Source: a virus. From it: 64,000 nucleotides of DNA. Below the pieces are notes generated by a model. The model was not told the origin of the DNA. It did no database searches and saw only the letters and a list, made by a program, of their open reading frames with translations. Every line of letters begins with the position of its first letter. Positions within the stretch are counted from its first letter, which is position 1. The stretch lies in the IMG/VR virus record IMGVR_UViG_3300028534_000028, positions 1,124 to 65,123 of that record. The stretch is one strand, 5' to 3'. Shown here piece by piece: positions 17,510-38,872 of the stretch. Made by a program: the position numbers and the translations under genes.

Positions 17510-17721
17510 TGAATGCAATTGAAATAGATGAAATTAGAAAGTGTTTTAATACACTTATTTGGTCAGGTGGTTCTGAAGCACCGGCTGAAGCTGTTTGGGC
17601 AGCAAATGATTTTATGAAGTTATTTTTAAATAAAGATGATATTATTTTATTAGATGAAGAAAGTTCTAATTGGGATGATTTTATAGAACAATTAAATCGA
17701 GTAAAGGTGAACTATGAGTAG
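17509..17721 (+). CDS. hypothetical protein
   Basis: 70 aa, coupled. Confidence 0.6.
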   Translation: MNAIEIDEIRKCFNTLIWSGGSEAPAEAVWAANDFMKLFLNKDDIILLDEESSNWDDFIEQLNRVKVNYE

Positions 17722-19810
17722 GAGAGGAAGACGTCGAAACGCTCGTAATAAAAATAAAGAGCAACAAAAAAATCAGAAAACTGTAACTGGAGAAGAGTTG
17801 GGATTTCAGAGAGGTCCTAAAGAAAAGCTTACAAAAGCACAAAAAAAAGCACAAAAAAAACAACGCAAAAAGGAAGAAAAAATGGCAGCGAGATTTAATT
17901 TAAATGGAACTAGAAAAACATGGTTTGGTGGTGGTAAACATGCCGCAGGTGGATACAAAACAATTGCAAAACCCAGTGATGGAACAGATGATAAAACATT
18001 AAATATAGTTTTATTCAAACAATCGTTTTTAAATAATTTGGCTAATCAGTGTGTTCCTGTCGCTGGTGGAGCGGAGTTTCAGGTGCATTACCGAGCATTA
18101 CAAATTATAATTACTAAGGAACGTATTGGTAGAATAGTTTATACAATACCAACTGTATTTTTTAATTTTAATCAAACCGTAACATCGGGATCGGTTGATT
18201 ATGATCTGGTTGAAGTTGACAAGATTTCTAAAGAGCTTCAACCAGAATCTATGGAAGTTGCGAATCAAATTGCTGCTTTATTCCCAAAAGCCTTTTTTGA
18301 AGGCAATGGTTTTACAGTAAGTTTTAAGGAAGATGAGGTTGGTAGTATTCATAGACACCCAGGTGATTTTTCTTTCAGTAGTATCGATTTAGATAATAAT
18401 CCGCAACATCCAGGGGTTATTTATAGACGCGGTAATGCATCCGATTTAATTCAAACGGATTCGGTAATGTATATCACTGGCTCAGCTGGCTCACAACATG
18501 TTAAATTGGTTACTACTCAAACACGTGTCGTAAACGTAAGTTTATTAAACAATGGTGAAGATGGTATTAAAGGTTCTTATAATAGAGCAAAAACTGTAGC
18601 TCTTATTCTTAAAGATACTGATACCGCCGAAACTATTCAGCAAAAAATTAGTATTGATTTCAATGCCTTTTTTAACGAAAACGAAGTTCAGGAAATAACC
18701 ACCCCTGGTATGGATACCGTTAAAGAAGATTTTCTTCCTAGATACGATAAAATCAAAGAGGATGAAATTCAAGAAGTTCTTGAAAATACAGCAAAAATAT
18801 TTAAATTGATTGCTGTGAAAGTTCCTGCTCCAATTACAAAAGTCGATGAAAAGCTTATCAAGTCACGAGGGTATGGAAACTATGCTGGGAGTGGATATGG
18901 ATATCAGGTTTATGGTAATAACCGTACCATTGGTAATGTTCGTCATTATGATCATGTTACTGGTACTTGGGTAGATGAAGAAGAGGAAGAGGAAAAACTT
19001 CCATTAAAATTCGATGTATTGGATTTTTTAAAATTTAAAGGTCTTGATAAAAAAGATACTAAAGTTACAGAAATCTTAGCTGATGATGTAGTTAAAGAGA
19101 TGTTTTGGATGTGTGCCGGAGAAGATGAAAAAGTAAATTTTAAATTAAATGATAAGTTGGTAATTATTGAACCAGTATCTAAAGCATCGCAACTTCTTAA
19201 AGTTACTTATGCTGGGACATCATCGTATAAAGCTAAAAGTATTTTTGAGAACAATGATGTCTCAGAAGAACTTAAAGAAGCTGGCTATATTAACGAAGAA
19301 GAAGAAGATGATATAGATTTATTAGAATATGTTGGTCTTGATGAAACCGAAATACCTACAAATACCGAATTAGCTACGGAACAACCGGAAGCAGAAGAAG
19401 CTGCTAAATCAGGAGGAATAAATTCTGGTCATACCGATGTTAAAGAATTGGAAAAATCACAAGAGCTTTTAAAAATTACAAAATTATTTGAAAAGCATGG
19501 TTTACGTATCCCAGAACGTCTTTTAAAAGATATTGGTAAAGATACTCAATGTGAGCAAATTTTTAAGAAAGCTTATCCTGGAGTTCTTTACGATAACAAT
19601 GGTCTTCTTAAAGTTTATGGAGAAGATGGTTTTAGTGAAATATTGATGATGTTACCAGTAGATACTGGTATTTTATTTTATCCAAAAACAGATACTGATT
19701 CATTTGTATATATCGCACCAATAGACGAAGGTGATACACATGGTAATGTTACATTCTGTAATAATGCGGTAGAGTTTTCCAAACAGGTTCCATTATATCA
19801 AAAGGATTAA
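17714..19810 (+). CDS. JAB/MPN (JAMM) metallopeptidase-like protein with basic N-terminus and acidic C-terminal region
   Basis: E121 (GAEFQ) plus H213-R-H215-x6-S222-xx-D225 (HRHPGDFSFSSID). Confidence 0.6.
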   Translation: MSRRGRRRNARNKNKEQQKNQKTVTGEELGFQRGPKEKLTKAQKKAQKKQRKKEEKMAARFNLNGTRKTWFGGGKHAAGGYKTIAKPSDGTDDKTLNIVLFKQSFLNNLANQCVPVAGGAEFQVHYRALQIIITKERIGRIVYTIPTVFFNFNQTVTSGSVDYDLVEVDKISKELQPESMEVANQIAALFPKAFFEGNGFTVSFKEDEVGSIHRHPGDFSFSSIDLDNNPQHPGVIYRRGNASDLIQTDSVMYITGSAGSQHVKLVTTQTRVVNVSLLNNGEDGIKGSYNRAKTVALILKDTDTAETIQQKISIDFNAFFNENEVQEITTPGMDTVKEDFLPRYDKIKEDEIQEVLENTAKIFKLIAVKVPAPITKVDEKLIKSRGYGNYAGSGYGYQVYGNNRTIGNVRHYDHVTGTWVDEEEEEEKLPLKFDVLDFLKFKGLDKKDTKVTEILADDVVKEMFWMCAGEDEKVNFKLNDKLVIIEPVSKASQLLKVTYAGTSSYKAKSIFENNDVSEELKEAGYINEEEEDDIDLLEYVGLDETEIPTNTELATEQPEAEEAAKSGGINSGHTDVKELEKSQELLKITKLFEKHGLRIPERLLKDIGKDTQCEQIFKKAYPGVLYDNNGLLKVYGEDGFSEILMMLPVDTGILFYPKTDTDSFVYIAPIDEGDTHGNVTFCNNAVEFSKQVPLYQKD

Positions 19811-19811
19811 A

Positions 19812-20849
19812 ATGAATAAAGTGGCATTCGTTAAAGATCCTCATCTTATGTTTGGGTTTTCTAATAATATTAGGAAACCCTTAGCGAATAGTTCTGGAAA
19901 TAGTTGGGAAAAAAGTATTCGGTATAAATTAGAATTTATAGCTAAAACTATGAAAGACAATGGAATACGTATCTTAATTATGTCGGGGGATGTTTTTGAT
20001 CGATCTAACAGAAGTGATTGGTCATTTAATAAATGGCTGAAACATAAAAGCATATTGTTAAATATTTTCGTACGTGAAGGCATCGAGATTTATTCAGTAC
20101 AAGGTAATCATGATATGTTTGATGGAAAAGATGAAATTAATGACACCGTATTTGGAGAAATGATTGAAAAAGGTATTATCAAACATTTAACTGCTCATCC
20201 ATTAGAGTTTCAAACAGCCGTGGGAATTATTAAAATTCATGGTATGGATTATTCATTTACAAAAGATAAACAAAAAAGAAAGTTTCAGTTGTTGAATGAA
20301 AATTCAAAAGATTATATTAGCTTATGTGTATCACATACCAATATAAGTCCAAATGAAGATCATTTGGTAGATTTTACTTATCTGGAGTTAAGCGAAAATT
20401 TTCCAAATATAGATGTCCATTTATGTGGTCATTATCATTTAGGTTATGAAAGTACTATTTTAAATGATGTTACTTTTATTAATCCTTGGAATATGACCAG
20501 AGTTATTCGTGAATATCAAGTCCGTATGGATAACCATACTCCAGAAGTAGTATTATTAGATTTAGATAGATATAATTCTGATAATATTGATTGGGTACAG
20601 CATGTGGAAATTCCCCATTTACCATTTCATGAAGCTTTTAACGAGGAGGTTATATCAGTACTAAAGGAAAATCAAAAGTTTAAATTTTTCGAGGATTCTT
20701 TTGGTGAAGTTATTAGTCTAGATGGACTTATTGATGAGGATTTAGATGATAATCAATTACTCAGTGTAATTATTAATTCTGTTCTTGGAGATAAGGACAC
20801 TAAAGAAAAACAAGCTTTATTAAATAAAGCTTTAGAATATTTAATTTAA
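19812..20849 (+). CDS. sbcD: Mre11/SbcD-like nuclease
   Basis: DPH, SGDVFD, GNHD, SHT, GHYH calcineurin-like motifs; NPW..TR. Confidence 0.85.
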   Translation: MNKVAFVKDPHLMFGFSNNIRKPLANSSGNSWEKSIRYKLEFIAKTMKDNGIRILIMSGDVFDRSNRSDWSFNKWLKHKSILLNIFVREGIEIYSVQGNHDMFDGKDEINDTVFGEMIEKGIIKHLTAHPLEFQTAVGIIKIHGMDYSFTKDKQKRKFQLLNENSKDYISLCVSHTNISPNEDHLVDFTYLELSENFPNIDVHLCGHYHLGYESTILNDVTFINPWNMTRVIREYQVRMDNHTPEVVLLDLDRYNSDNIDWVQHVEIPHLPFHEAFNEEVISVLKENQKFKFFEDSFGEVISLDGLIDEDLDDNQLLSVIINSVLGDKDTKEKQALLNKALEYLI

Positions 20850-20858
20850 GGAAAAAAG

Positions 20859-21839
20859 ATGAAAAAAATTCAAAAGATTATGGAATTATTAGAAAGTGAC
20901 TATGGAATTAAAGGTACTGCAAAACAAGTACTCGCAAAAAAAGAAATTGCCGAAAAGTTAATTCTTACAACCGAAATGGATCCATTTAATAGTCAAGAGG
21001 ATGCAAAAAAAGTTCTTAAAGTACTTAAGAAGTGCCAAAAAATTGCTACGAAAAATGATTTGATGGATCAAATTGGAGATATTTTAAAATTTCTAGAAAT
21101 GGTTATTCTTGGAAAACTAGAAAACGATTTAAAAGAAAATCCTGAACCAGTATTGAATAAAGAAGAAGCTTTAGAAATCAATAAACTTGCCAATGAGTTA
21201 AGTAATACGTTGAATGAGACATTTGGTGTAATAATTAAAAAAGATACCACTGAAGATAAAGATTATGAATGCGATATTGTCGAATTACCATCTAATTTTA
21301 TAAATGGTAAAGTTGATGAACCAAGTGGGATACGTTTATCGAAACTTATGGAAATTGCTTTCGTAAAAAAGGATAACGGAACTGTTTCATTAACTGCTAC
21401 TAATCTTCCAAAAGAGATTTCTAAAAAGGAATTTAAAAATCTTTTGAAAGCCGATGGTCTTTGGTTAAACAAAGAAACTATTTTAAAAGAAGGTGATCAT
21501 CGTTTGAAAGCTCGAATTTTATATTCGAAGAAATCTATTACTTTACTTTTGGTTGATAAAAATGTAAAAATAGAAACAGGTAATAAAGAAATTATCGCTC
21601 AAAAAATTGTATTGATACAAAAGAAAACCAAAAATGGTAAAGTTAAACTTAAAATTCCTGAATTTCTTAATATTGCCAATATGAAAGTTAAAGATATTAT
21701 AAAAAGTAAAAGTTTGAGAAAATTCTTGAAAGAAGTTGAATTTGACCACTCTTTTGGTTTAGTAGCGAATCAATATTGTATAGACGATCAAAATAACTTT
21801 TACCGTATTTGTATTCCATACAAAAAGAGAACAAAATGA
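20859..21839 (+). CDS. hypothetical protein
   Basis: 326 aa lysine-rich ORF. Confidence 0.7.
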   Translation: MKKIQKIMELLESDYGIKGTAKQVLAKKEIAEKLILTTEMDPFNSQEDAKKVLKVLKKCQKIATKNDLMDQIGDILKFLEMVILGKLENDLKENPEPVLNKEEALEINKLANELSNTLNETFGVIIKKDTTEDKDYECDIVELPSNFINGKVDEPSGIRLSKLMEIAFVKKDNGTVSLTATNLPKEISKKEFKNLLKADGLWLNKETILKEGDHRLKARILYSKKSITLLLVDKNVKIETGNKEIIAQKIVLIQKKTKNGKVKLKIPEFLNIANMKVKDIIKSKSLRKFLKEVEFDHSFGLVANQYCIDDQNNFYRICIPYKKRTK

Positions 21840-22570
21840 AAAGTATTGCTATCATTTCTAGTAGTGGTGGTTTAGATTCAAGTGCCTTAATTTATAAGGT
21901 ACTTAATGAAACTGATTGGGATATCGTTCTAGTTAGTTTTAATTATGGGCAAGTTAATAAAGTGGAACTTATGGCTCAAGAAAAGTTATACAGTATTTTA
22001 AAAGAAAGTAAATTTTCGAATAGAGTACTTATGAGAGCTAAATTAAGAATTCCTCTTTTCGATGATATTGGATTGGTAAATATGCAGGGTATTGATAATG
22101 CTGACCATGAGTACTATACTCCAAGCAGAAATTTATTATTTGGTACTACCGTAGCTAGTTTTGGCGAAGCTATTGCTACTAAGTACGGTTATGATAATAT
22201 CTTTCTTGGTATGGGTTTACATAAACATACCGAAGAAGCTTATGGCGAGGGAGAAGTTTCTCAGTATTGGGATATTACTCCAGAATTTGTCAAAAGACTT
22301 CAATATGTTTTTGATCTTAATGATCAAAAACATATTGAAATTTACGCACCTTATATAGATTCTTATAAAAAGGATATTATTAAAGATGTTGTAAAATATC
22401 AAGTTCCGTATAAAAATACTTGGACTTGTTACGAACCGCAATTAATACAGGATAATGAAAGAGATATCTATACTCCTTGTCTTAAATGCGAAGCTTGTAT
22501 AGAGCGGGAAATTAATGCAAGAGGAATTATCGATAATATTAACGATTATAAAATAGTTTTAGAATCGTAA
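21836..22570 (+). CDS. queC: 7-cyano-7-deazaguanine (preQ0) synthase
   Basis: SSGGLDS, FNYGQ, PSRNLLF, TWTCY...CLKCEAC zinc site; ATGA-coupled start at 21836. Confidence 0.9.
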   Translation: MKSIAIISSSGGLDSSALIYKVLNETDWDIVLVSFNYGQVNKVELMAQEKLYSILKESKFSNRVLMRAKLRIPLFDDIGLVNMQGIDNADHEYYTPSRNLLFGTTVASFGEAIATKYGYDNIFLGMGLHKHTEEAYGEGEVSQYWDITPEFVKRLQYVFDLNDQKHIEIYAPYIDSYKKDIIKDVVKYQVPYKNTWTCYEPQLIQDNERDIYTPCLKCEACIEREINARGIIDNINDYKIVLES

Positions 22571-22677
22571 ATAACTATTAATAGTTTAAGAACTGGCGGT
22601 GGTAGTTTAGTTATTTATATAGATAACTATTGTACTATTAATACACTCAACTATCAATAGTTAACTATTGATAGTTG
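22571..22677. repeat. dispersed palindromic element, copy 1
   Basis: ATAACTATTAATAGTT, TATAGATAACTAT, perfect 30-bp palindrome CAACTATCAATAGTTAACTATTGATAGTTG (22648-22677). Confidence 0.8.
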
Positions 22678-22769
22678 TTATCGAAATACGGAGGATGAAA
22701 ACCTCCTAAAAAAATCAAACATTAAATTAAAAACAGAAAAATTAAAAACAGAAAAAGGAGATCAGAAAA

Positions 22770-25346
22770 ATGATCTATAAAAATTTAACAAACGAGGTCC
22801 TTGACCTCGTAACGGAAAGTATCACGGAAGCAAAAGTAAATGGAATTATTGATAACCACCCAGGCATCTTATTAAAAGTTATCCTTTCGAAAGATACAAT
22901 CCTTAGAAGCATTCTGGAAGATCTTGAAGTTGATATTAATGGTATTTTCAATATTATCGATGACCAAATTAAAAATGATCCTATTAAATATGGCGAAGAT
23001 GCGGATACTTCGTTTGGTTCATTTACTCCAGAATATATCCAACTATTCGACACTGCTCATGAATTAGCTCTTCGCAATATGGATAAATATCTAGCATTAG
23101 ATATTTTGATCATTGCTGGTATTAGCGAAGGAAATCCATTCTATACTTATCTAAATCAATTCCTTGATTTAGATTTACTTGAGATGTATATTAAATCTCT
23201 TCGTGGTGATAGAAAAATAAATGAGAAAAGTTTTAAAGAGCAAAGTTTCTTAACAACTTTTTGTATTAACTTAAATGAGAAATACTTATCCGGTGATTGC
23301 GATTTAGTTCACGGTAGAGTGGACGAAATCGATAGGGTGGCTAATATTCTTAGTAAACGTACTAAGAATAATCCTATTTTAGTTGGAGAACCAGGAGTTG
23401 GTAAAACTGCTATAGCAGAAGGAATGGCAGGTAAAATTGTCAATCATGAAATTGAAAATCTTACAGATGTCGTTATTTGGAATCTTGATTTAACTGTTCT
23501 TATGAGTAATGCTAGTAAAGAAGAAGTTGCTGGTCGTATGAATGGATTGATTAAAGAGATTCAAAGAAAAAATAAATTCGAAGATTCCAAAATCGTTCTA
23601 TTCATTGATGAAATCCATCTTATCGTTGATAATCATGGCGGTATGGATTTAGCAAATATTTTAAAACCTGCTTTAGCTCGTGGGGAACTTAAAACAATTG
23701 GTGCAACTACTACTAAAGAGTACAACAAGTATTTTGAAAAAGATCCAGCAATTCAACGTCGTTTTCAACTCGTGAAAATTGATGAACCAGATGAAGAACA
23801 AACATTAGTTATTTTAAGAGGACTTAGAGAAAAAATCGAAGAGTTCCATAAGATCGAAGTAACGGACGAAGCTTTAGTAGCAGCTGTTAAATTATCTAAA
23901 CGTTATATTACTGATAGATTTTTACCAGATAAAGCAATTGATCTTTTGGACGAAGCAGCTTCTGTAGTAAGTAACTCTAGATTTATCGAAAGTACCGAAA
24001 TTAAAAAACTAAGATTAAAAATTCAAGAACTTGAATTTAAAATTAAAGGTGTTGAAAAAAGTATGGGGTCTTCTGATAAAGAAAGTTTTATTGCAAAACA
24101 GCAATCTTATTGGGAAGAACTTATCGATGAGCTTAGTAAACATAAATTACAACTTGACGAATTGGTAAACGAATTTAAATTAGCTAAAGTAAATCGTCAA
24201 CTAATTATGAAATTATCAAATGAAGTTAAACAAGCTGAGCAAGAAGCTTTCGAAGCAAAAGCTGAATTAGATTTAGATAAAGTAATTGAATTGGAAAAAA
24301 ATATTATTCCAAAACTACTAAAAGAAATTGAAGAAATTGAATCTGGTGTAGTTTCAGTTAATGTCCAAAAAAGTGATATTTCCCCAGTAGTTGAAAACTG
24401 GACAGGTATTCCAATGGAAAAAATCCAAGAAGAAGATTCTAATGAAAATATCAAAAATATTCTTGAGTTATTGAAGGATCGTGTAAAAGGTCAGGATGAA
24501 ACTCTAGAAGAAATTTCTAAAGCTATTCGTAGAAATAGCGCTGGTCTTTCTAAAGAAGGTAAACCAGTTGGTAGTTTTATGTTACTTGGACCAACAGGTA
24601 CTGGTAAAACAGAAACTGCTAAAAGTATTGCGGAAATTGTTTTTGGAGATGCTAAAAATATGGTAAGATTCGATATGTCTGAATTTATGGAACCACATAC
24701 TGTATCTAAATTCATTGGTAGTCCTGCTGGTTATGTTGGGCATGATGATGGTGGACAGCTTACAAACGCAATTAAACGCAATCCATATTCTTTAATCTTA
24801 TTTGATGAAATTGAAAAAGCTCATCCAAAAATCTTTGATATACTTTTACAAGTACTTGATGATGGTAGATTAAGAGATGGTAAAGGTCAAGTGGTAGACT
24901 TCAGTAATACAATAATTGTATTTACTAGTAATATTGGTGGAAGCGATTTAGCTAATATTCCGAATAAAGTTGTTCGAAATAAAGAAAAAATGCGTTTATT
25001 ACAAGAAACTTATAGACCAGAGTTTTTAAATAGATTAGACTGTATTTCGGTTTTTAATAAACTAGATATGGTTAATCTTATTGAGATTCTTAATCGTAAT
25101 CTTGATAATCTTGCTGAAAAACTTTGGAAAGATCGTTATATTAGTATTATGGTATCTGATGAATTTAAAGCTCATCTTATCTCAAGTATCGATATTGAAG
25201 CATTTGGAGCAAGACCTCTTAATAGATTAATTTCGTCTGAAATCGAAGATAAAGTTACCGATTTAATTCTCGATGGAAAATTAGAAATAGGTTCCGAAAT
25301 TATTTTCGAAATGGCGGATGATAAAATTATAGTAGAGGTGATATAA
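22770..25346 (+). CDS. clpB: ClpB-type AAA+ disaggregase
   Basis: [22 protein letters not shown], coiled-coil middle domain, [31 protein letters not shown]. Confidence 0.93.
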
Positions 25347-25398
25347 TAACTAAGTGTCGTGAACTAGTTTAGAGATAACTATTAATAGTTATCTCTAA
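25347..25398. repeat. dispersed palindromic element, copy 2
   Basis: TAACTAAGTGTCGT (identical at 43296-43309) and perfect 30-bp palindrome TTAGAGATAACTATTAATAGTTATCTCTAA (25369-25398). Confidence 0.8.
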
Positions 25399-25423
25399 TT
25401 ATTTAAATATAAAAGGAAAAAAA

Positions 25424-25660
25424 ATGGCAAAATTTAAAAAATTTAAAAGATCTGGTTTTAGCGAAATACGATCAGTAACAGATGAAGAAATCAAAATTGG
25501 ACCGGAAGCTTTAAGAGCGGAGGGTATTTCTGTCAGTGAGGTAGATGCTCAAGAAGGTTCTCCCAAACCTGGAGATGTTATAGCAAGAAATCCAGAAGAT
25601 TATAATGATCAATGGTTAGTAGCTAAAAAGTACTTTGAAGAAAATTTCGAGGAGCTTTAA
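25424..25660 (+). CDS. conserved small phage protein (SPK.GD.IARNP..DQWLV..YF..NF type)
   Basis: 78 aa, SD AAGGA; motif pattern familiar from small phage proteins. Confidence 0.7.
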   Translation: MAKFKKFKRSGFSEIRSVTDEEIKIGPEALRAEGISVSEVDAQEGSPKPGDVIARNPEDYNDQWLVAKKYFEENFEEL

Positions 25661-25915
25661 ATGGCAAATTCATTATCACCTTTGATCAAAGATCAATTTA
25701 AAAGATATTTCGTATCTGGAGTTAGTTTAACTGGAGTAAGATAAAAAGATGGTTTTATTAAATGTTCTATGAAATTAGATTATTTTTTAGAAGAATGGCC
25801 TAATGAAATAGAGTGTGGTCCAAATACATATACTTTGGAAAACGTACAAAAATTTAATAACGGTTCCGAACAAACCGATTATTGCCAATCAAATAAAATA
25901 AAAAGGAAAAATTGA
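25661..25915 (+). pseudogene. small gene with in-frame TAA
   Basis: ATG follows the previous stop; TAA at 25742-25744; frame stays open to TGA 25913-25915, which overlaps the next gene's ATG (TGATG). Confidence 0.55.
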
Positions 25916-28466: not shown

Positions 28467-28495
28467 AATAAAAATTAAAAAGAAAAGGAATAAAA

Positions 28496-29164: not shown

Positions 29165-29298
29165 CATTTGGAAAAGCTATCGATCTAATGAAATTAGATC
29201 CAAGTATTAAATTTTAAAGAGAAGGGTGAAATGGAAAAGGCTTGTATATATTTTATGTACGGGCCGAGGATTGGGAAATTTTTCAAAAGACTCAATAA
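29161..29298 (+). pseudogene. DUF2829/Tad2-like remnant
   Basis: MTFGKAIDLMK...F*REG*NGKGLYIFYV-RAEDWEIF; TAA 29215-29217, TGA 29227-29229. Confidence 0.65.
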
Positions 29299-29469: not shown

Positions 29470-29661
29470 ATGGAAAATGTAAGTATACCAGATGTAATAG
29501 AAAGAATTCAAATAATACTTAAACATGATGGTTGTAAAAAAACAAAAGGTGAAATTAAAAAATTTTTAGAAAATACTTTTCCAATAGAAATGAATAAAAA
29601 AATAATTTCTATAGAAGATGCTAAAAATCTATATAAAGCTGCTTGGGAAGAATATAATTAA
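29470..29661 (+). CDS. hypothetical protein
   Basis: 63 aa, SD AAGGA. Confidence 0.6.
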   Translation: MENVSIPDVIERIQIILKHDGCKKTKGEIKKFLENTFPIEMNKKIISIEDAKNLYKAAWEEYN

Positions 29662-29671
29662 GGAAAAAAAT

Positions 29672-30559
29672 ATGAAAGAATTAAGAGTAGATTTTATAAG
29701 TGATTTGCATTTAGATTTTTGGATGGAGAATTTAAACCCGCAATCTCCAAAATTTCAAAAACAATTACAAGAGTTTGTAGAAATGATTCAACCAAAACCT
29801 GGAAAAGTATTAATTCTTAGTGGTGATCAAGGACATTATTTTTCTCAGGATTCGGCATTACTTTTAGAACTTAAGAAATATTATCAAAATATTTTAATAG
29901 TTCCTGGTAATCATGATAGGTATTTAGTTAGCCATAACCAACAGAAAAAATATCGTTGGGATTCGTTTAAACGACTTTTAGAAATGAAAAGATTCTGCGA
30001 TAAAACCAATGGTTTATATTTTATGGATGGTATTGAAGGTAATGTTATAGTTATAGATGGTTTTAAAATTGGTGGACTTGGCATGTGGCATGATTGGTCA
30101 TATGGAAAAGAACTTGGTTATTCAGAAATCGAATTGGAAGAAATTTGGAAACAAGCTATGAACGATGCAAATTTAATATTTAAAGATTCGAAAAAAAATT
30201 ATACTATTTCTTTTGGATATAATGGTGAAGAAAAAATAGTTCATTTTAAACCGATAGAATTATATAAAGAGTATAGAGAAAAATTAGATAAGATGGAACC
30301 AGTTGATTTAATGTTTAGTCATTATGGTCCAATTATCCCAGATGATATTTCGGAAGATTATAAAGAAGATGAAGTAACTTCATTTTATTATTTCGATGGG
30401 GCTTCTGATATTTTTAGATTAAAACCTCAGTACTGGATACATGGACATACTCATACTAAATATGAAAGTAATCGTTCTGGTACTAAAGTTATTACTAATC
30501 CACTTGGATACCCAAGTGAAAATAGCTATACAACTATCCAAAGTATTTATTTAAAATAA
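29672..30559 (+). CDS. calcineurin-like metallophosphoesterase, intact motifs
   Basis: SDLH, SGD, PGNHD, SHYGP, HGHTH, NPLGYPSE; ATG 29672 has SD AAGGA. Confidence 0.88.
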   Translation: MKELRVDFISDLHLDFWMENLNPQSPKFQKQLQEFVEMIQPKPGKVLILSGDQGHYFSQDSALLLELKKYYQNILIVPGNHDRYLVSHNQQKKYRWDSFKRLLEMKRFCDKTNGLYFMDGIEGNVIVIDGFKIGGLGMWHDWSYGKELGYSEIELEEIWKQAMNDANLIFKDSKKNYTISFGYNGEEKIVHFKPIELYKEYREKLDKMEPVDLMFSHYGPIIPDDISEDYKEDEVTSFYYFDGASDIFRLKPQYWIHGHTHTKYESNRSGTKVITNPLGYPSENSYTTIQSIYLK

Positions 30560-30722: not shown

Positions 30723-31307
30723 ATGAAACAGCAATTTAATAAAACACGAGAAGTTATTTACGAAGGAATGGTTAAAGGTCAGCATCATGTTTTAACTATT
30801 TTTAAAGATGGTCATAAAAAATCACATTACGAATATTATGTTGGAATTCCTAAAAACCATCCATGTTATACGAGTAACCCTATTCCAGGAAGAGGAATTA
30901 TCTCGGATGGTAAAAATAGATGGTTTAAAGATCCAAGTGGAGATAAGGAAAGTGAGTTATATAAAATAAGTAAAACTATTCAATTTAATAGTTCACGAGA
31001 ACTTAAAAAAGCAATTAATAGTTTATCGGAACCTTTTCGAATGTCTCAAACAGATATAAATAAATTTTATGCATATAATATGGCAGCAATGAAATATGCT
31101 TGGCTATCTTTTCATGGAAATATTTACGAATTTTTAAAAGAGGATTATTGTTATTATGGTGGTGGTATGTATATACCAAGTTTTGGGGATAAATCATGTT
31201 TGGAATCTTCTAAAGTGGCTTTAAAATTACTTGGAAATTATTTTTTAAAAGTTAAAGATATTAGTAAAGATTTAGATAAAATAAATGTAAATTTTGAAGG
31301 AGAGTAA
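30723..31307 (+). CDS. hypothetical protein
   Basis: 194 aa ORF. Confidence 0.65.
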   Translation: MKQQFNKTREVIYEGMVKGQHHVLTIFKDGHKKSHYEYYVGIPKNHPCYTSNPIPGRGIISDGKNRWFKDPSGDKESELYKISKTIQFNSSRELKKAINSLSEPFRMSQTDINKFYAYNMAAMKYAWLSFHGNIYEFLKEDYCYYGGGMYIPSFGDKSCLESSKVALKLLGNYFLKVKDISKDLDKINVNFEGE

Positions 31308-31718
31308 ATGATATTGTACTCATTGGAAATCCATAAATGCGATAATTATTTTTATAGTCATGATACCTTTAGTTGTAAAAAAGTAAATGTAATTGATACT
31401 ATAAATTGTGAAAGTATTTATAAAGAAAATGGAAAAATAATTAGAAAAAATAGTTCCATAAAATATAAAATAATTGATGAAAAAGGAATAGAAGAACTAG
31501 TTAATATAAACGATGGAAAATATTTTAAATCATTAAAAGAACTTTTAAAATATTTTAAAAAAGAATATTTTAAAATTTATTCGGATAATTATTATGATTA
31601 TTATATGGATTCGGATACTAAAAATTTAGTTACCTGCGTTTCTAATTTATCTAATCGCGGTTTAGGATTATCCAAAGATCATATAGATTTACAAAAAGAG
31701 TTAAAGGAAAATAAATGA
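31308..31718 (+). CDS. hypothetical protein
   Basis: 136 aa ORF. Confidence 0.6.
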   Translation: MILYSLEIHKCDNYFYSHDTFSCKKVNVIDTINCESIYKENGKIIRKNSSIKYKIIDEKGIEELVNINDGKYFKSLKELLKYFKKEYFKIYSDNYYDYYMDSDTKNLVTCVSNLSNRGLGLSKDHIDLQKELKENK

Positions 31719-32686
31719 AAAAAGTAGAAAAGTTAGATGAACTTATAGATGGAGAATATTATTGGATGCATAGTAATATGATATTCGATAATGGTTCTAG
31801 AAGTTCCCAAATGTTAATTGGGAGATATTTTGATAACGAAGATGGTAGAGCTTATTTTGAAGCTTATTCTGGAGACCGTATTTGGTCGCACGATGGTAAT
31901 AACCAAGCGATGGAAAAATACGATATATATGGACCAATTCCAAAACCATTTTCTGGAAAACCAGAAATTGGACAATTTTCGGATTTTGAAAAAGTATTCG
32001 GAAATAATGAAGAATTGTATTCGATGATAGCTCAAATCAGAGATTATTTTCCAAATGAAATTACAAAATATATTCCGGAGAGTAGTGCCTATAGTTCACC
32101 CGAATGTGTTTTATTCGCTCTTTATAAAAGTCTCGAAGATAAACTATCATCTCAAAAAAAGATAACTAAAAGTACCAATAGTTTACTATCTGTAGATGAC
32201 GTCTCTAAAGAAAATGATTTTGAATTCTTTTGGGGAGGAGTATTTTCACAATGGGCTAAATATAATTTTACGGATGAATATGGGGTAACTTATAACTGTG
32301 CAGAACAATATATGATGGCTCAAAAAGCAGAAATTTTTAATGATACGGAAATGTATAATAAAATTATGGCAAGTTCCGATCCAAGAGAACAAAAAGCATT
32401 TGGTAGAAAAATAAAAGGTTTTAATGACGAAGAATGGGATAAATATAAAATAAAAATAGTCCACAATGGAACATATTTAAAATTTTCCCAACATTTAGAA
32501 TTAAAAAAATATCTTTTAAGTACTGGAAATAAAATTATAGTAGAAGCTTCACCATATGATAGAGTTTGGGGAATTGGTTTAAGTGAAACCGATCCTAAAA
32601 GATTCGATCCAAAATTATGGAGAGGTCAGAATTTGCTTGGTTTTATTATAACTCAAGTAAGAGAACAATTAAAGGAAGATAAATGA
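31715..32686 (+). CDS. NADAR (YbiA-like) hydrolase fused to an unknown N-terminal region
   Basis: FSQW, AEQYMMAQKA, QKAFGRKI, LKFSQH, LLSTG...VEASPYDRVWGIG, GQNLLG. Confidence 0.92.
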   Translation: MKKVEKLDELIDGEYYWMHSNMIFDNGSRSSQMLIGRYFDNEDGRAYFEAYSGDRIWSHDGNNQAMEKYDIYGPIPKPFSGKPEIGQFSDFEKVFGNNEELYSMIAQIRDYFPNEITKYIPESSAYSSPECVLFALYKSLEDKLSSQKKITKSTNSLLSVDDVSKENDFEFFWGGVFSQWAKYNFTDEYGVTYNCAEQYMMAQKAEIFNDTEMYNKIMASSDPREQKAFGRKIKGFNDEEWDKYKIKIVHNGTYLKFSQHLELKKYLLSTGNKIIVEASPYDRVWGIGLSETDPKRFDPKLWRGQNLLGFIITQVREQLKEDK

Positions 32687-33492
32687 AATTTATACAATTA
32701 GGAAATGGTGGTGGATTAGATCCAACTGTTACCAACAGTAGTTTTTTAGTCCAGGTAAAAGAAGATGAATATCTATTATTTGATTGTGGTTTTAATGTTA
32801 TGCAAAAACTTATAGAATTACAGGAAGAATCTTTGCAGAATAATGAACATTTTCATATTTCGAAAATTAAATATGTTTTTATTTCACATATTCATGATGA
32901 TCATGTTGGAAATGTGGAAACATTAATGTTTTGGAATTATTTTAAAAATAATGTTTCTATGACTTGGCTATATGCAAATGAAGAAGTAAAAAATTATTTA
33001 GAAATGAAAATAAAACCAAAATTATACAATGGTGGAAAAGTAGACGAATATTCTATTATTCAATCTAATATTAGATCTGTTTCTGGAGATAGCGATTTTC
33101 CATATATAATTGTTCATCCTAGACGAGAAAACCAAAACACTGCCGAAACTATCAAATTATTATCATTGCAGGAAACCTTTCATGGTGGATGCCCATCAAA
33201 TGGTTTAGTAATAATTAAAGAGTTTGATAATGGTATTACAAGATATAAAACCTGTATTGTTATTTCTGGAGATACTAAAGCGTCACTATACTTAGAAGAA
33301 GAGATATTATATAAAACATCAAACTCTTTTCGTACTATAATATATCATGATTTTAGTGATTGGAATTGTCCAAGTAAAAATGTACATGCATGTGAATCAG
33401 ATATTGTTAACGAGTACTCAGAGGAATTTAGAGAATCTTTAATTTGGTATCATAATAACGATGAGTTTAATGATGGTTGGTTAGATTGGTAA
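32683..33492 (+). CDS. metallo-beta-lactamase-fold phosphodiesterase, Apyc1/RNase Z-like
   Basis: LG.GG, NSSFLV, LFDCG, H69-I-H-D-D-H74, SGDT, YHD, VHA, terminal YH. Confidence 0.8.
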   Translation: MKFIQLGNGGGLDPTVTNSSFLVQVKEDEYLLFDCGFNVMQKLIELQEESLQNNEHFHISKIKYVFISHIHDDHVGNVETLMFWNYFKNNVSMTWLYANEEVKNYLEMKIKPKLYNGGKVDEYSIIQSNIRSVSGDSDFPYIIVHPRRENQNTAETIKLLSLQETFHGGCPSNGLVIIKEFDNGITRYKTCIVISGDTKASLYLEEEILYKTSNSFRTIIYHDFSDWNCPSKNVHACESDIVNEYSEEFRESLIWYHNNDEFNDGWLDW

Positions 33493-33499
33493 AAGAGTG

Positions 33500-33529
33500 A
33501 AAAAAAGAACCTTCGGGTTCTTTTTTTTT
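33500..33529 (+). terminator. intrinsic terminator, probably bidirectional
   Basis: A7-GAACC-TTCG-GGTTC-T9, cUUCGg loop. Confidence 0.9.
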
Positions 33530-33555
33530 GCTAGAAAAAATAAAAAAGGAAAATA

Positions 33556-35589
33556 ATGGAAAATAATATCCAAGATTTCGAAAATAAATTAATTCAATTA
33601 AATAATCAATTTCATATTAGTACAAAAATTAAAGAAAATTTGGAAAATGAAAATCAGATTTTTTTAAATAATTGTGTTGGTATCGAAAAAGAATTAAAAT
33701 TATTAAATGATACTAAAATGCTTTTAGAAACTTTAAAAATACATAAATTAAAGGAAAAAAAGGATTTTATTTTAAATATAGTAAATACAGCGTTAACAGA
33801 TATTTTTCAAGATAATATTAAAATTGCTATAGAACCACAAGAAAGTAAAGGCAAGATTAATACAAGTGGCACTCAAAAATTTGATATAATTTTTTATCAG
33901 AACGATATTGAGTTAGCTAGAAACGAAGAATTACTTATTTCCAATGGTGGTGGTATAATGCAAGTTGTATCAATGCTTTTTAAATTATTAATAGGTTTTA
34001 TTTATTCTAAAAATACTTTTTATATGTTTGATGAAAGTTTTAGCCAATTAAGTCAAGATAACAGAATACGTCTTAGTAAATTTTTACAAATGTTTTGTGA
34101 AAAATACAACTTTACTATAGTAGTTGTTTCTCAAGTTCTTGATTTAGATGAGTACGCAGATATTATTTATAGCGTAAATGTCAAATATGATAATAAAGGA
34201 GTTCGAGAACTAGTATTGGAAGATTCTAAATTTAAAGAAGGTATATTTGAAAGAAATTCTCAGGTTGGTGAGGAAGGAGTTTGGCATATAAATATTAAAA
34301 ATTTCCAAAGTATTAAAAATATAGATTTACGATTTAAAGGTTATACTATAATACGTGGACCAAATAATTCTGGTAAAAGTGCTATACTTAGAGCAGTTAG
34401 TTCAATACTTTATAATTCTTTCAATGTAAAAAAATATCCTCGTAAAGCTGGTGGTTTAGATTCTAAAGGTAATCCTAGTAAAAAAGTACTTAATACGGAA
34501 ATATTTTTAAGAAAAACTTATTCTGTAAATCCAGAAGAGTATAATGGTGCTCTTGGTATTGGTAAAGAAATTGGATTACGTTATAAAAGTTCTAAAGTAT
34601 CCTTTGTTATAGAAGGTGAAGAATACTATGGAAAGAATTTAGCAGCTGAAAAACTTATGGAAAAGATCGAAGAACTTGGATTCAAGTACATAAATATGAA
34701 AGAATTCTATAAAAATTTTAAAGGTAATTTAAAAGATCAAACCGAAAGAATTGCTAGTACTACTCAGTATGATGGATTATTTTTGGTTGGTTCCAAAGGT
34801 AACGAAACCGAAAAGATTTTTAACTTTTTATTTAATACTGAAAATATTACAAAAGCTATTTTAAAAGTTAAAGAAGATATGATACTTTTATCAAAAAATC
34901 ATGAATCTACTCAAGAAAGAATTTTGGAAAATACTTCTAAAATAAATAATGTAAATAACGAAATACAATATTATTTAAATTTATATTATTTAACGATTAT
35001 TGAAAATTTATCTTTATTCGATACAAAAGTATTAACGGATTATTTAAATAATCTTAATTTTGGAATTGATATTAGAAATCGAATTATATTTATTTATCAA
35101 AATAATATAGTTTTATTTAATAGAGAATTTTTAAAGGTAAAGAAAGCTATACAATATATAAACGATATAAAAAATAATATCGTTTTAATTGATGAGCAAA
35201 TTGAATTAAAATCCTACAAAATCGTAATACTTGAAGAAATAAAGTTAAAAATAAATAAACTAGAAATAATCAATAATGATATTCAATTAAAGAAAACCAT
35301 AGAAACATTGGAATTTGATTCAGATACGAAATTAAAAGAGATAAAAGTAATTGATTTTGGTTTAAAAATTAGAGAGCAAATACTTCATAAATTAGAAAAA
35401 TTATCTAAATTAAAAAAATACCTATATCAGTATACAAAAGATTATCGAAATAAAAATAATTTAGAATTATATTTGGAACCAGTTTTAAATCAATTACAAA
35501 TTATTAAAATTAAACAAGAAAATTTATTTACAGAATGTTCCCATTGTTCTGGTAAAGGATTTATATTAAAGGATAGAAATGCAAAATAA
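33556..35589 (+). CDS. sbcC: SbcC/Rad50-like ABC ATPase, circularly permuted
   Basis: Signature SNGGG aa129, Walker B FDES aa158, then Walker A GPNNSGKS aa268, coiled coil, CSHC aa661-664. Confidence 0.82.
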   Translation: MENNIQDFENKLIQLNNQFHISTKIKENLENENQIFLNNCVGIEKELKLLNDTKMLLETLKIHKLKEKKDFILNIVNTALTDIFQDNIKIAIEPQESKGKINTSGTQKFDIIFYQNDIELARNEELLISNGGGIMQVVSMLFKLLIGFIYSKNTFYMFDESFSQLSQDNRIRLSKFLQMFCEKYNFTIVVVSQVLDLDEYADIIYSVNVKYDNKGVRELVLEDSKFKEGIFERNSQVGEEGVWHINIKNFQSIKNIDLRFKGYTIIRGPNNSGKSAILRAVSSILYNSFNVKKYPRKAGGLDSKGNPSKKVLNTEIFLRKTYSVNPEEYNGALGIGKEIGLRYKSSKVSFVIEGEEYYGKNLAAEKLMEKIEELGFKYINMKEFYKNFKGNLKDQTERIASTTQYDGLFLVGSKGNETEKIFNFLFNTENITKAILKVKEDMILLSKNHESTQERILENTSKINNVNNEIQYYLNLYYLTIIENLSLFDTKVLTDYLNNLNFGIDIRNRIIFIYQNNIVLFNREFLKVKKAIQYINDIKNNIVLIDEQIELKSYKIVILEEIKLKINKLEIINNDIQLKKTIETLEFDSDTKLKEIKVIDFGLKIREQILHKLEKLSKLKKYLYQYTKDYRNKNNLELYLEPVLNQLQIIKIKQENLFTECSHCSGKGFILKDRNAK

Positions 35590-36223
35590 TTATTTAAATT
35601 ATTTAAAAAATTTACCTACGGATAACAATATAAAAGTATCCGGACAAAATACTATAAACGATATAACTAAAAGTATAAACACTTCTGGTTTATCTGGAAT
35701 AGAAATTGGAGAAAAATTAATTGAAGATTCCAGTATTAATGAAATAATGGATTATTCGGATTATCAAAATTTGACTAAAAAATTTAAAACGTTTATTGAT
35801 ACCAATTATAAAAATTGGTATCAAATACCAATCGAGAAAAATAATATTTATACCAGTATATTAGAAGAAGCCACTAAATTATTATCTGAATTATTTCCTT
35901 ATAATAAAAACGTTCCTAATGTTAATGAAGCAAACATATTTGAAAATTTATCAAATATGTTTTTTTATATTTATTTAATTTTTATTCATAAAGGCGAAGA
36001 AGTTTCATTATATAGTTTAATTAATAGTTATATTAAAATTAGCGAAGATCAAACCTTTCAAAGGGATAAAGGTATTATATATCATAACGCTTGGGACACA
36101 ATTTTAATACCAATAAGTATTAAACAATACCATTTAATACTTATTAAATTATTAGATTTTTGGTTTGGTATTGGTGGAACTTGGGAATCTCTTAAAAAAC
36201 GATTATCTATAAAATTATTATAA
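35579..36223 (+). CDS. hypothetical protein
   Basis: 214 aa ORF. Confidence 0.65.
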   Translation: MQNNYLNYLKNLPTDNNIKVSGQNTINDITKSINTSGLSGIEIGEKLIEDSSINEIMDYSDYQNLTKKFKTFIDTNYKNWYQIPIEKNNIYTSILEEATKLLSELFPYNKNVPNVNEANIFENLSNMFFYIYLIFIHKGEEVSLYSLINSYIKISEDQTFQRDKGIIYHNAWDTILIPISIKQYHLILIKLLDFWFGIGGTWESLKKRLSIKLL

Positions 36224-36294
36224 CTATTCATAATAATTATATAGATATGTTTATTATATGAATTATTAAATTTATTAAATTAAGGAAAATAAAA

Positions 36295-36792
36295 ATGTCA
36301 AAAAAAATAGAAGAAATTCAAAAAGAATTAATATCTTTAGAAATCTTAACTTTTAGTGAGGATGTTACTGAATACTCGGAAGAAGAACTTAGAAAAAAAT
36401 ACCGAAGTTTTAAAGAATCGTTTACTTTAATAGATGACCTTTCACAACCATATGTAATTAGAACGGTCGTTGGTGATCATAAAGATATTAGATCACTTGA
36501 ACCAGAAATGATTCCAGAATGTGATAGATTTGAAGTATCTGAAAGCGTTCAGGATATTTTAAAAAATAATGAACTACCAGTTTATAAAAGCGAATTTGAT
36601 CAAAATAATATTGCTAATATCGCAAGTATTAAAGAACAGCAGTTAAATGCAGCTATTAAACAAGAAATGTTAAATGGTCTTAAAGCTATGGAAGATGGAA
36701 AAATTAATCCGGATATCGTTAAAGAAGCTAAAGGATTATCCGATAAAGTTATTATCGAGGTTCAACCTGAAGAAGAGAAAACAGAAAAATAA
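36295..36792 (+). CDS. hypothetical protein
   Basis: 165 aa, SD AAGGA. Confidence 0.7.
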   Translation: MSKKIEEIQKELISLEILTFSEDVTEYSEEELRKKYRSFKESFTLIDDLSQPYVIRTVVGDHKDIRSLEPEMIPECDRFEVSESVQDILKNNELPVYKSEFDQNNIANIASIKEQQLNAAIKQEMLNGLKAMEDGKINPDIVKEAKGLSDKVIIEVQPEEEKTEK

Positions 36793-36800
36793 GGATTCTC

Positions 36801-38327
36801 ATGAAAATGGTTAGAAGTAAGCTCGATGATAAACGGGAAAAAAAGATAAAAATTGATTATAACATAGTCGAGCAAAAAATAGAAGAATTTTTAATTAAAT
36901 ATAATATCGATGGGGAAATGGAAATATTTATCCAGAATAAAATCAATAATGAATTAAATATAGATAAGGCATATTTAAATATTATTAATAAAAAAGGTAC
37001 TAGTCAACCACAAGTACAAGTAGAATTTTTTACAGATATAAAAAAATATTTAACTAGTCTTATTAATGAAAAAATTCTTTTGGAAATCGAATATGTTAAA
37101 GCCAATGATTCTGAAGAAAAAGCAGAAGAAATAAAAGAAATATTGAATAATACGCTAGAGGAAATTCCTCTAACTATGTTCGATAAAGGAATTAGTAGAC
37201 CCACTTTAACAGCATATCATTATTTTTTAAAAGTGCTTCATAAAAATACGGAAGCCTATATGGAAAAGAATGGTATTAAAAAAATTCGTAATGTTAAAAA
37301 TCCTAATGAAATATTTTCAAATGAGATTTATAATATAGTTGGTAAAGATAACGAGTTAATGAGATTTACTTTAACTCTTAAAAATCTTATTGAGAACTGG
37401 TTAATTAAATACAGTACTAAATCCCAAATTGGAGAATTTTATTATAATATTTTAATGATCACCCCAGAAACCATTATAGAAAAGATTTTAAAATATTTGG
37501 TAATGGTAGCAATTCGTAATAAGAATCCTATGACTCTTAGAGCCATTTTTAGCTCGTATATAACACTTATACATAAAAATCTATTCTCTTACTACAGTAC
37601 GAATCTTAGTAACGTTAAAGTTGGTTATTTTAAACAACTTGAAGAATTATTTACAGAGAACTTTGATTTAATTTTCGATGATAATGAGAAAAGGGATTCT
37701 AAAAAAACGATAACAGATATCATGATTAAAACTTATCTTATGAAAAATAAACGTTATTTAAAAGATGATTTTGAATTTCTAAATAATGAATATTTTCAAA
37801 GTTTTTTTGAAACTAATTATTACGATGCTATTACGTCATATAATTATAAAACCGAATTCTCATTATTAGATCATATGTATTTTTATGAAACCGCTTATAA
37901 ATATACTAAAAATCATGGAGACGATGGCAATGCTTATGGAGATGAAAAAAATAAGTTACCAGTAAGTTTAGAAAATACTTCCGTAATCAATAGTTCATTT
38001 TTAAAGAAAAATACTAAAAAGAAAAATATTTTATATATTAAAGAAAAACTAACTAAAAAATTATTTAGATACTTCTATAATATATTTGGGGATAAAGAAT
38101 CAGTATTGGAAATTCTTACTAAAATGGCAGAAGACATATTAACCAAATTAAATTTTAATCTTTATTTAGATGAAAATTTAAATAAATTGGATTTAACTTT
38201 TAATGAGTACTTAGATAATATTGATTTCTTTATTGATAAAATTGAAAAAATTATATTGGGTGATGAAAACGAAATTAATAATGGTTCCGATCAAATACAG
38301 GATTTAATTCCGGAAAAAGTTATATAA
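36801..38327 (+). CDS. hypothetical helical protein
   Basis: 508 aa ORF, SD AAGGA. Confidence 0.75.
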   Translation: MKMVRSKLDDKREKKIKIDYNIVEQKIEEFLIKYNIDGEMEIFIQNKINNELNIDKAYLNIINKKGTSQPQVQVEFFTDIKKYLTSLINEKILLEIEYVKANDSEEKAEEIKEILNNTLEEIPLTMFDKGISRPTLTAYHYFLKVLHKNTEAYMEKNGIKKIRNVKNPNEIFSNEIYNIVGKDNELMRFTLTLKNLIENWLIKYSTKSQIGEFYYNILMITPETIIEKILKYLVMVAIRNKNPMTLRAIFSSYITLIHKNLFSYYSTNLSNVKVGYFKQLEELFTENFDLIFDDNEKRDSKKTITDIMIKTYLMKNKRYLKDDFEFLNNEYFQSFFETNYYDAITSYNYKTEFSLLDHMYFYETAYKYTKNHGDDGNAYGDEKNKLPVSLENTSVINSSFLKKNTKKKNILYIKEKLTKKLFRYFYNIFGDKESVLEILTKMAEDILTKLNFNLYLDENLNKLDLTFNEYLDNIDFFIDKIEKIILGDENEINNGSDQIQDLIPEKVI

Positions 38328-38335
38328 GGATTATT

Positions 38336-38872
38336 ATGAAAGCGACTGATAAAATTGGATATGTTGATGTGATATTTGATTCAGAATCAAATAGATTATT
38401 AAACCAGATTATTAAAGATCTTGGTTTAATAAAAGATTTTAATGATAATTTTCACTGTACGATAGCTCATTCAACTAAAGATTTTGACTTTAAATTACTT
38501 GGCGAAGATAAAAATAAAGTAAAAATAAAAGATAATAAAATAATTGTTAAAATTAAGGAAAAATGTACGATAAAAGGTTTCGGTAATTTTAAAACGAATG
38601 AAGGTCTAAATTTTCACGTGGTTTTAGATTGTCCTTTTTGTAAATCGGAATTTAAGAGAAGTCTTAAATCCGGAGCGATGTATAAATACGATAACTATAT
38701 TCCTCATATTACTTTAATGTATAATTGTACTTTACCTGGAGAAGATAAAAGTATTCCTAAAAAATATTTTAAAAATACTTTAATTAAATACATTGGAAAA
38801 AAATTAACTATAATTCAAGAACGTAAACAAAAACTTAATAAAAATTGGGTCGAAGACTCTAAAAAAAATTAA
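38336..38872 (+). CDS. 2H phosphoesterase, Acb1 (T4 gp57B)-like
   Basis: H40-C-T and H124-I-T motifs; GA.Y.YD.Y.PHITL.YN and C-terminal L..NW.ED resemble T4 57B. Confidence 0.8.
   Translation: MKATDKIGYVDVIFDSESNRLLNQIIKDLGLIKDFNDNFHCTIAHSTKDFDFKLLGEDKNKVKIKDNKIIVKIKEKCTIKGFGNFKTNEGLNFHVVLDCPFCKSEFKRSLKSGAMYKYDNYIPHITLMYNCTLPGEDKSIPKKYFKNTLIKYIGKKLTIIQERKQKLNKNWVEDSKKN

Follow-up and report, generated by a model that had tools for sequence, protein, structure and literature searches.

The region studied here is the 17.7–38.9 kb part of a 64-kb stretch of viral DNA (the window; positions 1,124 to 65,123 of the IMG/VR record IMGVR_UViG_3300028534_000028), in which genes for a JAB/JAMM-domain protein, metallophosphoesterases, QueC, a ClpB-like chaperone and an SbcC/Rad50-like ATPase lie together with members of the counter-defence families NADAR, Apyc1, Tad2 and Acb1. 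It is probably a mosaic, made of a conserved backbone and two inserted, variable accessory cassettes that carry the counter-defence families. The window represents 64 kb of a 65.9-kb viral contig with a CheckV completeness of 23%, and this contig covers part of a jumbo-phage genome of about 280 kb with a guanine plus cytosine (GC) content of about 27%. Genes run on the plus strand as far as about 43 kb of the window; all the genes given below are on that strand, and open reading frames (ORFs) without a family name are designated by their start position. Upstream of 17.7 kb lie QueD, FolE, ThyX, a piece of a family-B polymerase and both halves of a type II topoisomerase.

DNA and protein searches of GenBank phages found no relatives of the region, of the JAB protein or of a 508-aa protein encoded at 36801–38327, and the phage belongs to a clade of uncultured, low-GC jumbo phages without relatives among GenBank phages. 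Related contigs were graded by the identity of their JAB protein to that of the window: 84% for G001, 79% for L015, 63% for L013/L014 and 37% for L009, L012 and L017. Other loci compared were L011, the most distant relative, L016, a short close fragment, and L018, also a fragment. G001 is an IMG/VR contig of 114 kb (completeness 41%) and is syntenic with the window throughout; ratios of nonsynonymous to synonymous substitution rates (dN/dS) are those of window genes against G001. L014 is a relative of 204 kb, and L013 and L014 are the same contig, of which the fetched part was examined. A promoter scan of the window gave a result no better than that of shuffled sequences.

Domain identities, catalytic motifs, synteny and gene turnover were read directly from the window and these relatives. 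The backbone appears to run in the order type II topoisomerase, JAMM-domain protein, Mre11-like phosphoesterase, QueC, ClpB, SbcC/Rad50-like ATPase and four core genes. The topoisomerase, the JAB protein, the 345-aa esterase, the SbcC-like ATPase and the 214-, 165-, 508- and 119-aa genes are common to L009, L012 and L017, and mostly to L011 too, while QueC and ClpB are kept in L009, L012 and L017 and were not found in the fetched part of L011. Cassette A would then be the segment from 25.4 to 33.5 kb, inserted between ClpB and the SbcC-like gene, and cassette B would consist of Acb1 and an 89-aa ORF, placed between the 508-aa and the 119-aa backbone genes. Where the window has 8 kb between ClpB and the SMC gene, L012 has only five genes, namely two without a family match followed by a Sipho_Gp157 protein, a thioredoxin and a DUF6899 protein. 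The scan for terminator-like hairpins gave one just 3' of ClpB, at the left edge of cassette A (25369–25398, plus strand), and one just 3' of the metallo-β-lactamase (MBL) gene, at its right edge (33500–33527, minus strand). The dN/dS of backbone genes was between 0.04 and 0.13, except for the SbcC-like ATPase (0.24) and ORF 35579 (0.36), and that of cassette genes was between 0.15 and 0.45. Since all values are below 1, the small ORFs are taken to be real genes under selection.

Towards the right end of cassette A, the gene at 31715–32686 encodes a NADAR domain at residues 175–320, with a score of 176.3 bits for Pfam PF08719 (cut-off 35.1). The nearest solved relative is PDB 8BAU (1.6e-17), with E. 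coli YbiA at 5.8e-8. Phage NADARs (AdfN) remove DarT1-made ADP-ribose from DNA (PMC11257639), and the window protein, as a putative NADAR glycohydrolase, would strip ADP-ribose put on DNA guanine by DarT1-type toxins. Like the NADAR anti-DarT factors (AdfN of T4; Bas32/Bas60), it has a strong NADAR domain and an accessory position in a phage; unlike most phage NADARs (PMC11257639), it carries a 165-aa N-terminal extension (31715–32209), for which no family and no Atlas match was detected.

The next gene (32683–33492) encodes a predicted Apyc1-family MBL phosphodiesterase with the HxHxDH motif as HIHDDH at residue 69, with H69, D73 and H74 unchanged across 30 homologues. The best PDB matches were Apyc1 proteins, and all of the homologues (95/95) carry PF23023. 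A 30-sequence profile of the MBL family aligned to the Apyc1 of Bacillus phage Bsp38, PDB 7T28 (PMC9117128), with an E-value of 1.3e-18 over positions 2–239 of 245, and to ELAC2 and RNase Z with values of 1e-11 and 4e-9, both partially. Judged from these alignments, the protein is a divergent Apyc1-family enzyme. It shares with the Apyc1 of Bsp38 and of Paenibacillus (7U2R/7U2S) the HxHxDH motif, a size of about 250–270 aa and full-length profile alignment, and differs in falling below the Pfam cut-off of the family, which marks it as a divergent subfamily. Apyc1 cleaves Pycsar cyclic mononucleotides (PMC9117128), and the window enzyme would destroy the cyclic mononucleotide signals of Pycsar-type systems. 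The activities and targeted defence systems suggested here for cassette proteins are those of the published members of each family.

In cassette B, the gene at 38336–38872 encodes a predicted Acb1, a 2H phosphoesterase of the anti-CBASS type, with 59.8 bits for Pfam PF23474 (cut-off 27). Its HxT motifs are HCT at residue 40 and HIT at residue 124, the second of which aligns to Acb1 of Erwinia phage FBB1; in T4 Acb1 the catalytic tetrad is H44/T46/H113/T115 (PMC9117128). FBB1 Acb1 was also the only relevant PDB match (phmmer E-value of 0.008, partial alignment). The protein resembles Acb1 of T4 and FBB1 (7T26) in its above-cut-off Pfam score, similar size and both HxT motifs, and differs from the solved protein in being very divergent and about 30 residues longer. 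Acb1 cleaves CBASS cyclic oligonucleotides (PMC9117128), as the window protein would also do. It is followed by the 89-aa ORF 38882 (38882–39151; dN/dS 0.45), which stands after Acb1 in G001, L014 and L015 as well. Both genes were found only in the closer relatives; Acb1 had no match in L012 or L011, where other genes follow the 508-aa homologue.

The fourth family, Tad2 (DUF2829, PF11195), is represented in the window by a pseudogene in cassette A (29161–29298), with 67% identity over 36 codons to the Tad2 of G001. Its first 35 and last 10 codons are kept; nonsense codons stand at 29215 and 29227, and 139 nt are missing from the interior relative to L015. Most of a YqeY-like gene and its neighbour was lost through a second deletion, of 653 nt relative to L015. 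G001, L015 and L016 have an intact Tad2, and the G001 protein scores 83 bits in Pfam and about 1e-14 against solved Tad2 proteins. In G001 the GGDEF gene is separated from the active esterase by an additional 2.5 kb, which begins with this intact Tad2. Tad2 sequesters glycocyclic ADP-ribose (gcADPR) and some cyclic dinucleotides (bioRxiv 10.1101/2023.11.15.567273). Compared with the known Tad2 sponges (SPO1 gp34.65, ModTad2, HgmTad2/AcrIIA7), the G001 copy matches, whereas the window keeps only the gene ends; the copy of the relatives has the short SPO1-type insertion and not the long, c-di-GMP-binding insertion of HgmTad2. In the relatives, YqeY-like genes, small membrane proteins and SPFH/Band_7 genes follow GGDEF/Tad2 (G001, L004:10349–12556; L017:8495–10090), and this whole block is deleted in the window phage.

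The gene that precedes the Tad2 remnant, and whose stop codon overlaps it as ATGA, encodes a sensor-less GGDEF cyclase with an N-terminal coiled coil (28496–29164; Pfam PF00990 50.2 bits, cut-off 23.8). The Pfam alignment spans profile positions 3–87 of 161. The GGDEF motif is at residue 104 and the upstream metal-binding Asp is present, while the RxxD motif is absent. PDB matches were diguanylate cyclases, and the protein aligns to DgcZ through the active-site half. At the base-recognition position it has Thr, where DgcZ has Gly and PleD has Asn, so this position is not diagnostic of the product. Tad2 comes immediately after the GGDEF gene in G001, L015 and L016, as the Tad2 pseudogene does in the window; in L017 it is Band_7, not Tad2, that lies directly 3' of the GGDEF gene. 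Binding of GGDEF-made c-di-GMP by the coupled Tad2 was considered, and this idea was weakened by the short SPO1-type insertion and by the Band_7 partner in the distant relative.

A role of the cyclase itself in counter-defence was also considered. The Panoptes system guards against phage sponges and nucleases (PMC12657218), and the GGDEF protein might flood the cell with a cyclic dinucleotide, either silencing Panoptes-type guards while immune signals are cleared by the sponges and nucleases of the phage, or jamming host signalling. The link is suggested because the GGDEF gene overlaps or abuts Tad2 in every close relative that carries it, and it is weakened because the Tad2 insertion is short and of the type that does not bind c-di-GMP and because the distant relative pairs GGDEF with an SPFH gene. 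We regard this role as a long shot.

Taken together, the data support the view that established counter-defence families cluster here and behave like arms-race genes, with varying content, decay or swapping, and raised dN/dS. The L014 contig illustrates the turnover. In its fetched part the GGDEF and NADAR genes are absent, and its Apyc1-like gene is a deletion remnant in two fragments, with residues 1–30 and 189–269 only. The NADAR position of L014 (12775–14715) is occupied by a Tad2-like gene with an N-terminal zinc-ribbon extension (97 bits), a 348-aa radical-SAM enzyme and a Cys-rich 91-aa ORF. In L023, another close relative, NADAR and the Apyc1-like gene have two additional ORFs between them (193 and 82 aa; 1821–2647), which are further hotspot candidates.

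Anti-defence genes of phages often cluster, and this is the basis of guilt-by-association searches. Like the known clusters, the locus has unrelated counter-defence families side by side and a content that changes between close relatives; unlike them, its cassettes are wedged between the halves of what appears to be an Mre11/Rad50-type module, in an uncultured jumbo-phage clade. It is a fresh instance of an already known type of locus, that of clustered, exchangeable phage counter-defence genes, in an uncharacterised clade, and the map indicates where this clade keeps its exchangeable immune-evasion genes. In the initial annotation, which was made from the window sequence, the clustering had been extended to all the genes named. 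It was supported for Acb1, the Apyc1-family MBL protein, NADAR and Tad2, all of them in variable cassettes, and not for the phosphoesterases and the GGDEF protein, since no evidence was found tying either to immune signalling. Its domain calls were nearly all confirmed: JAB (by fold), QueC, the phosphoesterases (two with active motifs and one dead), GGDEF, the Tad2 remnant, NADAR, the Apyc1-like protein and Acb1. The ORF that had been meant as a candidate sponge could not be identified, and Pfam gave no match to a known anti-defence (sponge) family for any unannotated ORF.

Two paralogous phosphoesterases are encoded in cassette A. The product of ORF 27377 (27377–28201) is catalytically dead, with the DxH, GD, GNHD and GHxH motifs lost and a match to phrog_1649 only; it is kept in four relatives, with dN/dS of 0.21. 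Its paralogue (ORF 29618/29669; 29669–30559) has all the motifs and matches both the Pfam metallophosphoesterase model (55.2 bits) and phrog_1649 (9e-41). The latter family is widespread, with 154 phage records that include gp348 of Bacillus phage G and YotB of SPbeta; a literature search for YotB was unproductive.

Among the backbone genes, the first after the topoisomerase (17714–19810) encodes a 698-aa protein in which residues ~85–310 form a JAMM/MPN (JAB) metalloprotease domain, the N-terminal tail is K/R-rich and the C-terminal half is acidic and variable. No match was obtained in Pfam (E ≤ 0.01), PHROG or PADLOC, and no JAB, Prok-JAB or RadC model was hit; the family profile found nothing among PDB sequences either, so that the identity was resolved only by fold search. 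The 55 homologues are all on phage-sized contigs of up to 285 kb, and none of them (0/55) has a precomputed Pfam domain. Residues E121, H213, H215, S222 and D225 are invariant in alignments of 26 to 51 homologues and form the zinc motif E...HxH...S..D, with HxH-x6-S spacing instead of x7. An AlphaFold model of residues 85–310, built on 51 sequences, had a predicted local distance difference test (pLDDT) value of 91.5 and aligned to P. furiosus JAMM1 (PfJAMM1, 5LD9) with Z 11.1 and a root-mean-square deviation of 2.9 over 127 residues, to the bacterial deubiquitinase of ubiquitin-like (Ubl) conjugates 8TYY with Z 9.8, and to CBASS Cap3 (9ILD) with Z 9.7. MPN proteins filled all of the first 35 rows of the VIA search and the first 50 of the Foldseek search. 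By its modelled fold, the 698-aa protein is a sequence-divergent JAMM family. With the prokaryotic JAMM/MPN+ isopeptidases (PfJAMM1, 8TYY, Cap3) it shares the fold (Z 9.7–11.1) and the invariant zinc-site residues; it differs in the missing Pfam JAB match, the x6 spacing, the 698-aa context with basic tail and acidic half, and its place as a conserved backbone gene of the clade beside an Mre11-like nuclease. The gene was found in every relative, L011 included, with dN/dS of 0.12. A literature search for a phage JAB anti-defence protein was unproductive.

The 345-aa metallophosphoesterase (19812–20849; Pfam Metallophos 39.4 bits), which always comes after the JAB gene in the relatives, is Mre11/SbcD-like and keeps all five metallophosphoesterase motifs (dN/dS 0.09). 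The 677-aa SMC ATPase (33556–35589) is SbcC/Rad50-like, matches Pfam SMC_N/AAA_29 and has 49–52% identity to its homologues in L012 and L011. Both the SbcD matches of the esterase and the Rad50 matches of the ATPase are weak and partial. The two genes are 12.7 kb apart in the window, with QueC, ClpB and cassette A between them. In L011 (11991–15149), the order is JAB, a 130-aa ORF, the esterase, a 105-aa ORF and the SMC ATPase, so that one small ORF separates the two. From this order, the esterase and ATPase look like an Mre11/Rad50-type pair that was pushed apart later by insertions, and the JAB–esterase–SMC run of L011 points to an Mre11/Rad50-type recombination module. The new JAMM family beside the Mre11-like nuclease would be worth following biochemically, as would the phage cyclase so tightly coupled to a sponge gene.

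After the SMC gene come ORF 35579 (214 aa), ORF 36295 (165 aa) and ORF 36801 (508 aa), which together occupy 35579–38327 and were assigned to the backbone by synteny, since they are kept after the SMC gene in L012, L014, L015 and L018, with the 508-aa gene also in L011. The 119-aa gene (ORF 39160; 39160–39519) has 38% identity in L012 and 30% in L011, with dN/dS of 0.09; its homologue is directly 3' of the 508-aa homologue in L011, and one gene off and on the opposite strand in L012.

Three of these genes are among the seven small ORFs (29470, 30723, 31308, 35579, 36295, 38882 and 39160) that the initial annotation had put forward by association as candidates for new anti-defence proteins, to be given up if they turned out to be core replication genes. 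This is largely what was found for ORFs 35579, 36295 and 39160, conserved with the SMC and 508-aa genes in distant relatives, and for these three only. ORF 29470 (29470–29661), of 63 aa and without a family match, is an orphan in a deletion scar, with no homologue in any relative compared. The proposal fared best for ORF 30723 (30723–31307), a 194-aa protein of a small family with dN/dS of 0.41. It sits after the active esterase in G001, L014 and L015. Among its more distant homologues, that of L018 immediately precedes an Apyc1-family gene, that of L019, a 226-kb contig, begins three bases past a Tad6 Thoeris inhibitor (73 bits), and that of L020 is near a Metallophos gene. A search of representatives gave 10 relatives, to which viral and metagenome scans added only three loci, and Atlas matches were to unnamed viral clusters only. 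The structural model (pLDDT 72.6) had no fold match above noise, the best one being like a type III secretion system chaperone (Z 6.1). Given these neighbours of its homologues (Apyc1, Tad6, a metallophosphoesterase), ORF 30723 ranks first among the candidates for new anti-defence proteins. The 136-aa ORF 31308 (31308–31718; dN/dS 0.40), found in G001 and L014 and absent in L015, and ORF 38882 are plausible candidates as cassette genes with high dN/dS. With the three backbone ORFs removed, the list of candidates is thus shortened to ORFs 30723, 31308 and 38882, the pair of dead and active phosphoesterases and the GGDEF cyclase.

QueC, of the preQ0 synthase type (21836–22570; Pfam QueC 104.7 bits), keeps the PP-loop motif SGGLDS and the zinc cysteines CxxCxxC, with a score of 91 bits for the NCBIfam QueC equivalog, under its cut-off of 150. 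QueD (226–837) and FolE (2724–3476) were both confirmed. FolE, QueD and QueC feed 7-deazaguanine DNA modification, and in this phage QueC, with QueD and FolE, probably supplies such a modification against restriction.

The interpretation as a backbone with two inserted cassettes was weighed against three other explanations. According to the initial annotation, the whole of 17.7–38.9 kb would form one counter-defence set, in which the JAB protein strips Ubl conjugates, the phosphoesterases and GGDEF act on immune signals and the seven ORFs are all candidates. All the domains it named are real, and deubiquitinases, among them 8TYY and Cap3, are the closest structural matches of the JAB domain. 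This explanation is nevertheless very unlikely, given that the JAB protein, the 345-aa esterase, the SbcC-like ATPase and ORFs 35579, 36295 and 39160 are kept in distant relatives, with low dN/dS apart from the ATPase and ORF 35579, and that the JAB, esterase and SMC genes of L011 fall within a five-gene run, as expected of a recombination module. Moreover, no finding connects the phosphoesterases with cyclic nucleotides, and the only phage metallophosphoesterase to have been characterised works through damage to host DNA (PMC12287305). The genes for JAB, the 345-aa esterase, QueC, ClpB and the SbcC-like ATPase belong to the backbone, and the idea of a single 21-kb set was dropped. It is also unlikely, if somewhat less so, that the genes make up an ordinary early module of nucleotide and DNA metabolism and host takeover, with 2H RNA-ligase-like repair, RNase Z-like processing and a riboflavin-type N-glycosidase clustered incidentally. 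PHROGs labels the Acb1 family "RNA ligase", the MBL protein matches RNase Z models weakly, NCBIfam names the NADAR domain after YbiA, and ThyX, FolE, QueD, DNA polymerase and topoisomerase lie upstream. Against this, Acb1 scores twice its Pfam cut-off and has the HxT/HxT tetrad, the MBL profile prefers Bsp38 Apyc1 over its full length to the partial ELAC2/RNase Z alignments, the Tad2 gene has no metabolic interpretation, and presence/absence turnover with raised dN/dS would be unexpected for housekeeping genes.

It is hardly credible, finally, that part of the cassette is a phage-borne defence or superinfection-exclusion system, built from GGDEF with the SPFH and transmembrane (TM) genes of the relatives and from the OLD/Gabija-like P-loop of the 677-aa ATPase. 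The GGDEF gene is indeed followed by Band_7 in L017 and is near Band_7 and TM genes in G001, and PADLOC gave Old, GajA and PtuA matches for the ATPase; however, these are confined to ~45 residues around Walker A, the ATPase belongs to the backbone and lies near the Mre11-like esterase in L011, and the PADLOC scan gave matches at the P-loop level only and detected no complete known defence system. The mosaic interpretation has points that weigh against it too. The comparison of backbone and cassettes covers about six related contigs. The conservation of the JAB protein may be compatible with an anti-defence role. The best NCBIfam model for the NADAR domain is TIGR02464, the YbiA-type riboflavin-intermediate N-glycosidase (157 bits), which may set the protein apart from the anti-DarT factors, and the MBL protein scores 21.9 for Pfam Apyc1 (PF23023), under the 50-bit cut-off, with an Apyc1-like relative in L023 scoring 19.3. 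In addition, no DpdA/TGT (PF01702) was found in the window contig or in G001, which are fragments only 23% and 41% complete, so that this absence carries little weight.

A fast-evolving 326-aa protein without a family match (20859–21839) has 65%, 40% and 35% identity in close relatives, no match in distant ones and dN/dS of 0.30. The 508-aa protein, with 96% identity to G001, 46% in the most distant relative and dN/dS of 0.06, is among the most conserved of the stretch, and had no match in Pfam, PHROGs, PADLOC or PDB sequences. The ClpB-like two-ring AAA+ chaperone (22770–25346), recognised by Pfam and NCBIfam, has 59–94% identity in the relatives and scores 736 bits against the ClpB model; the jumbo-phage clade keeps this ClpB-type disaggregase at full length. 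Cassette A begins with a 78-aa protein without a family match (25424–25660), whose homologues occur in phages of Rhizobium and Tenacibaculum as well as in close relatives, followed by an internally duplicated helix-turn-helix (HTH) protein (25912–27387; Pfam HTH_26). The HTH gene contains a four-copy 42-nt tandem repeat at 26485–26652, and the relatives carry a single copy of ~240–280 aa. Further downstream, an HNH-endonuclease-like ORF (phrog_374; 40195–40530) has no counterpart in G001 and is probably a mobile insertion.

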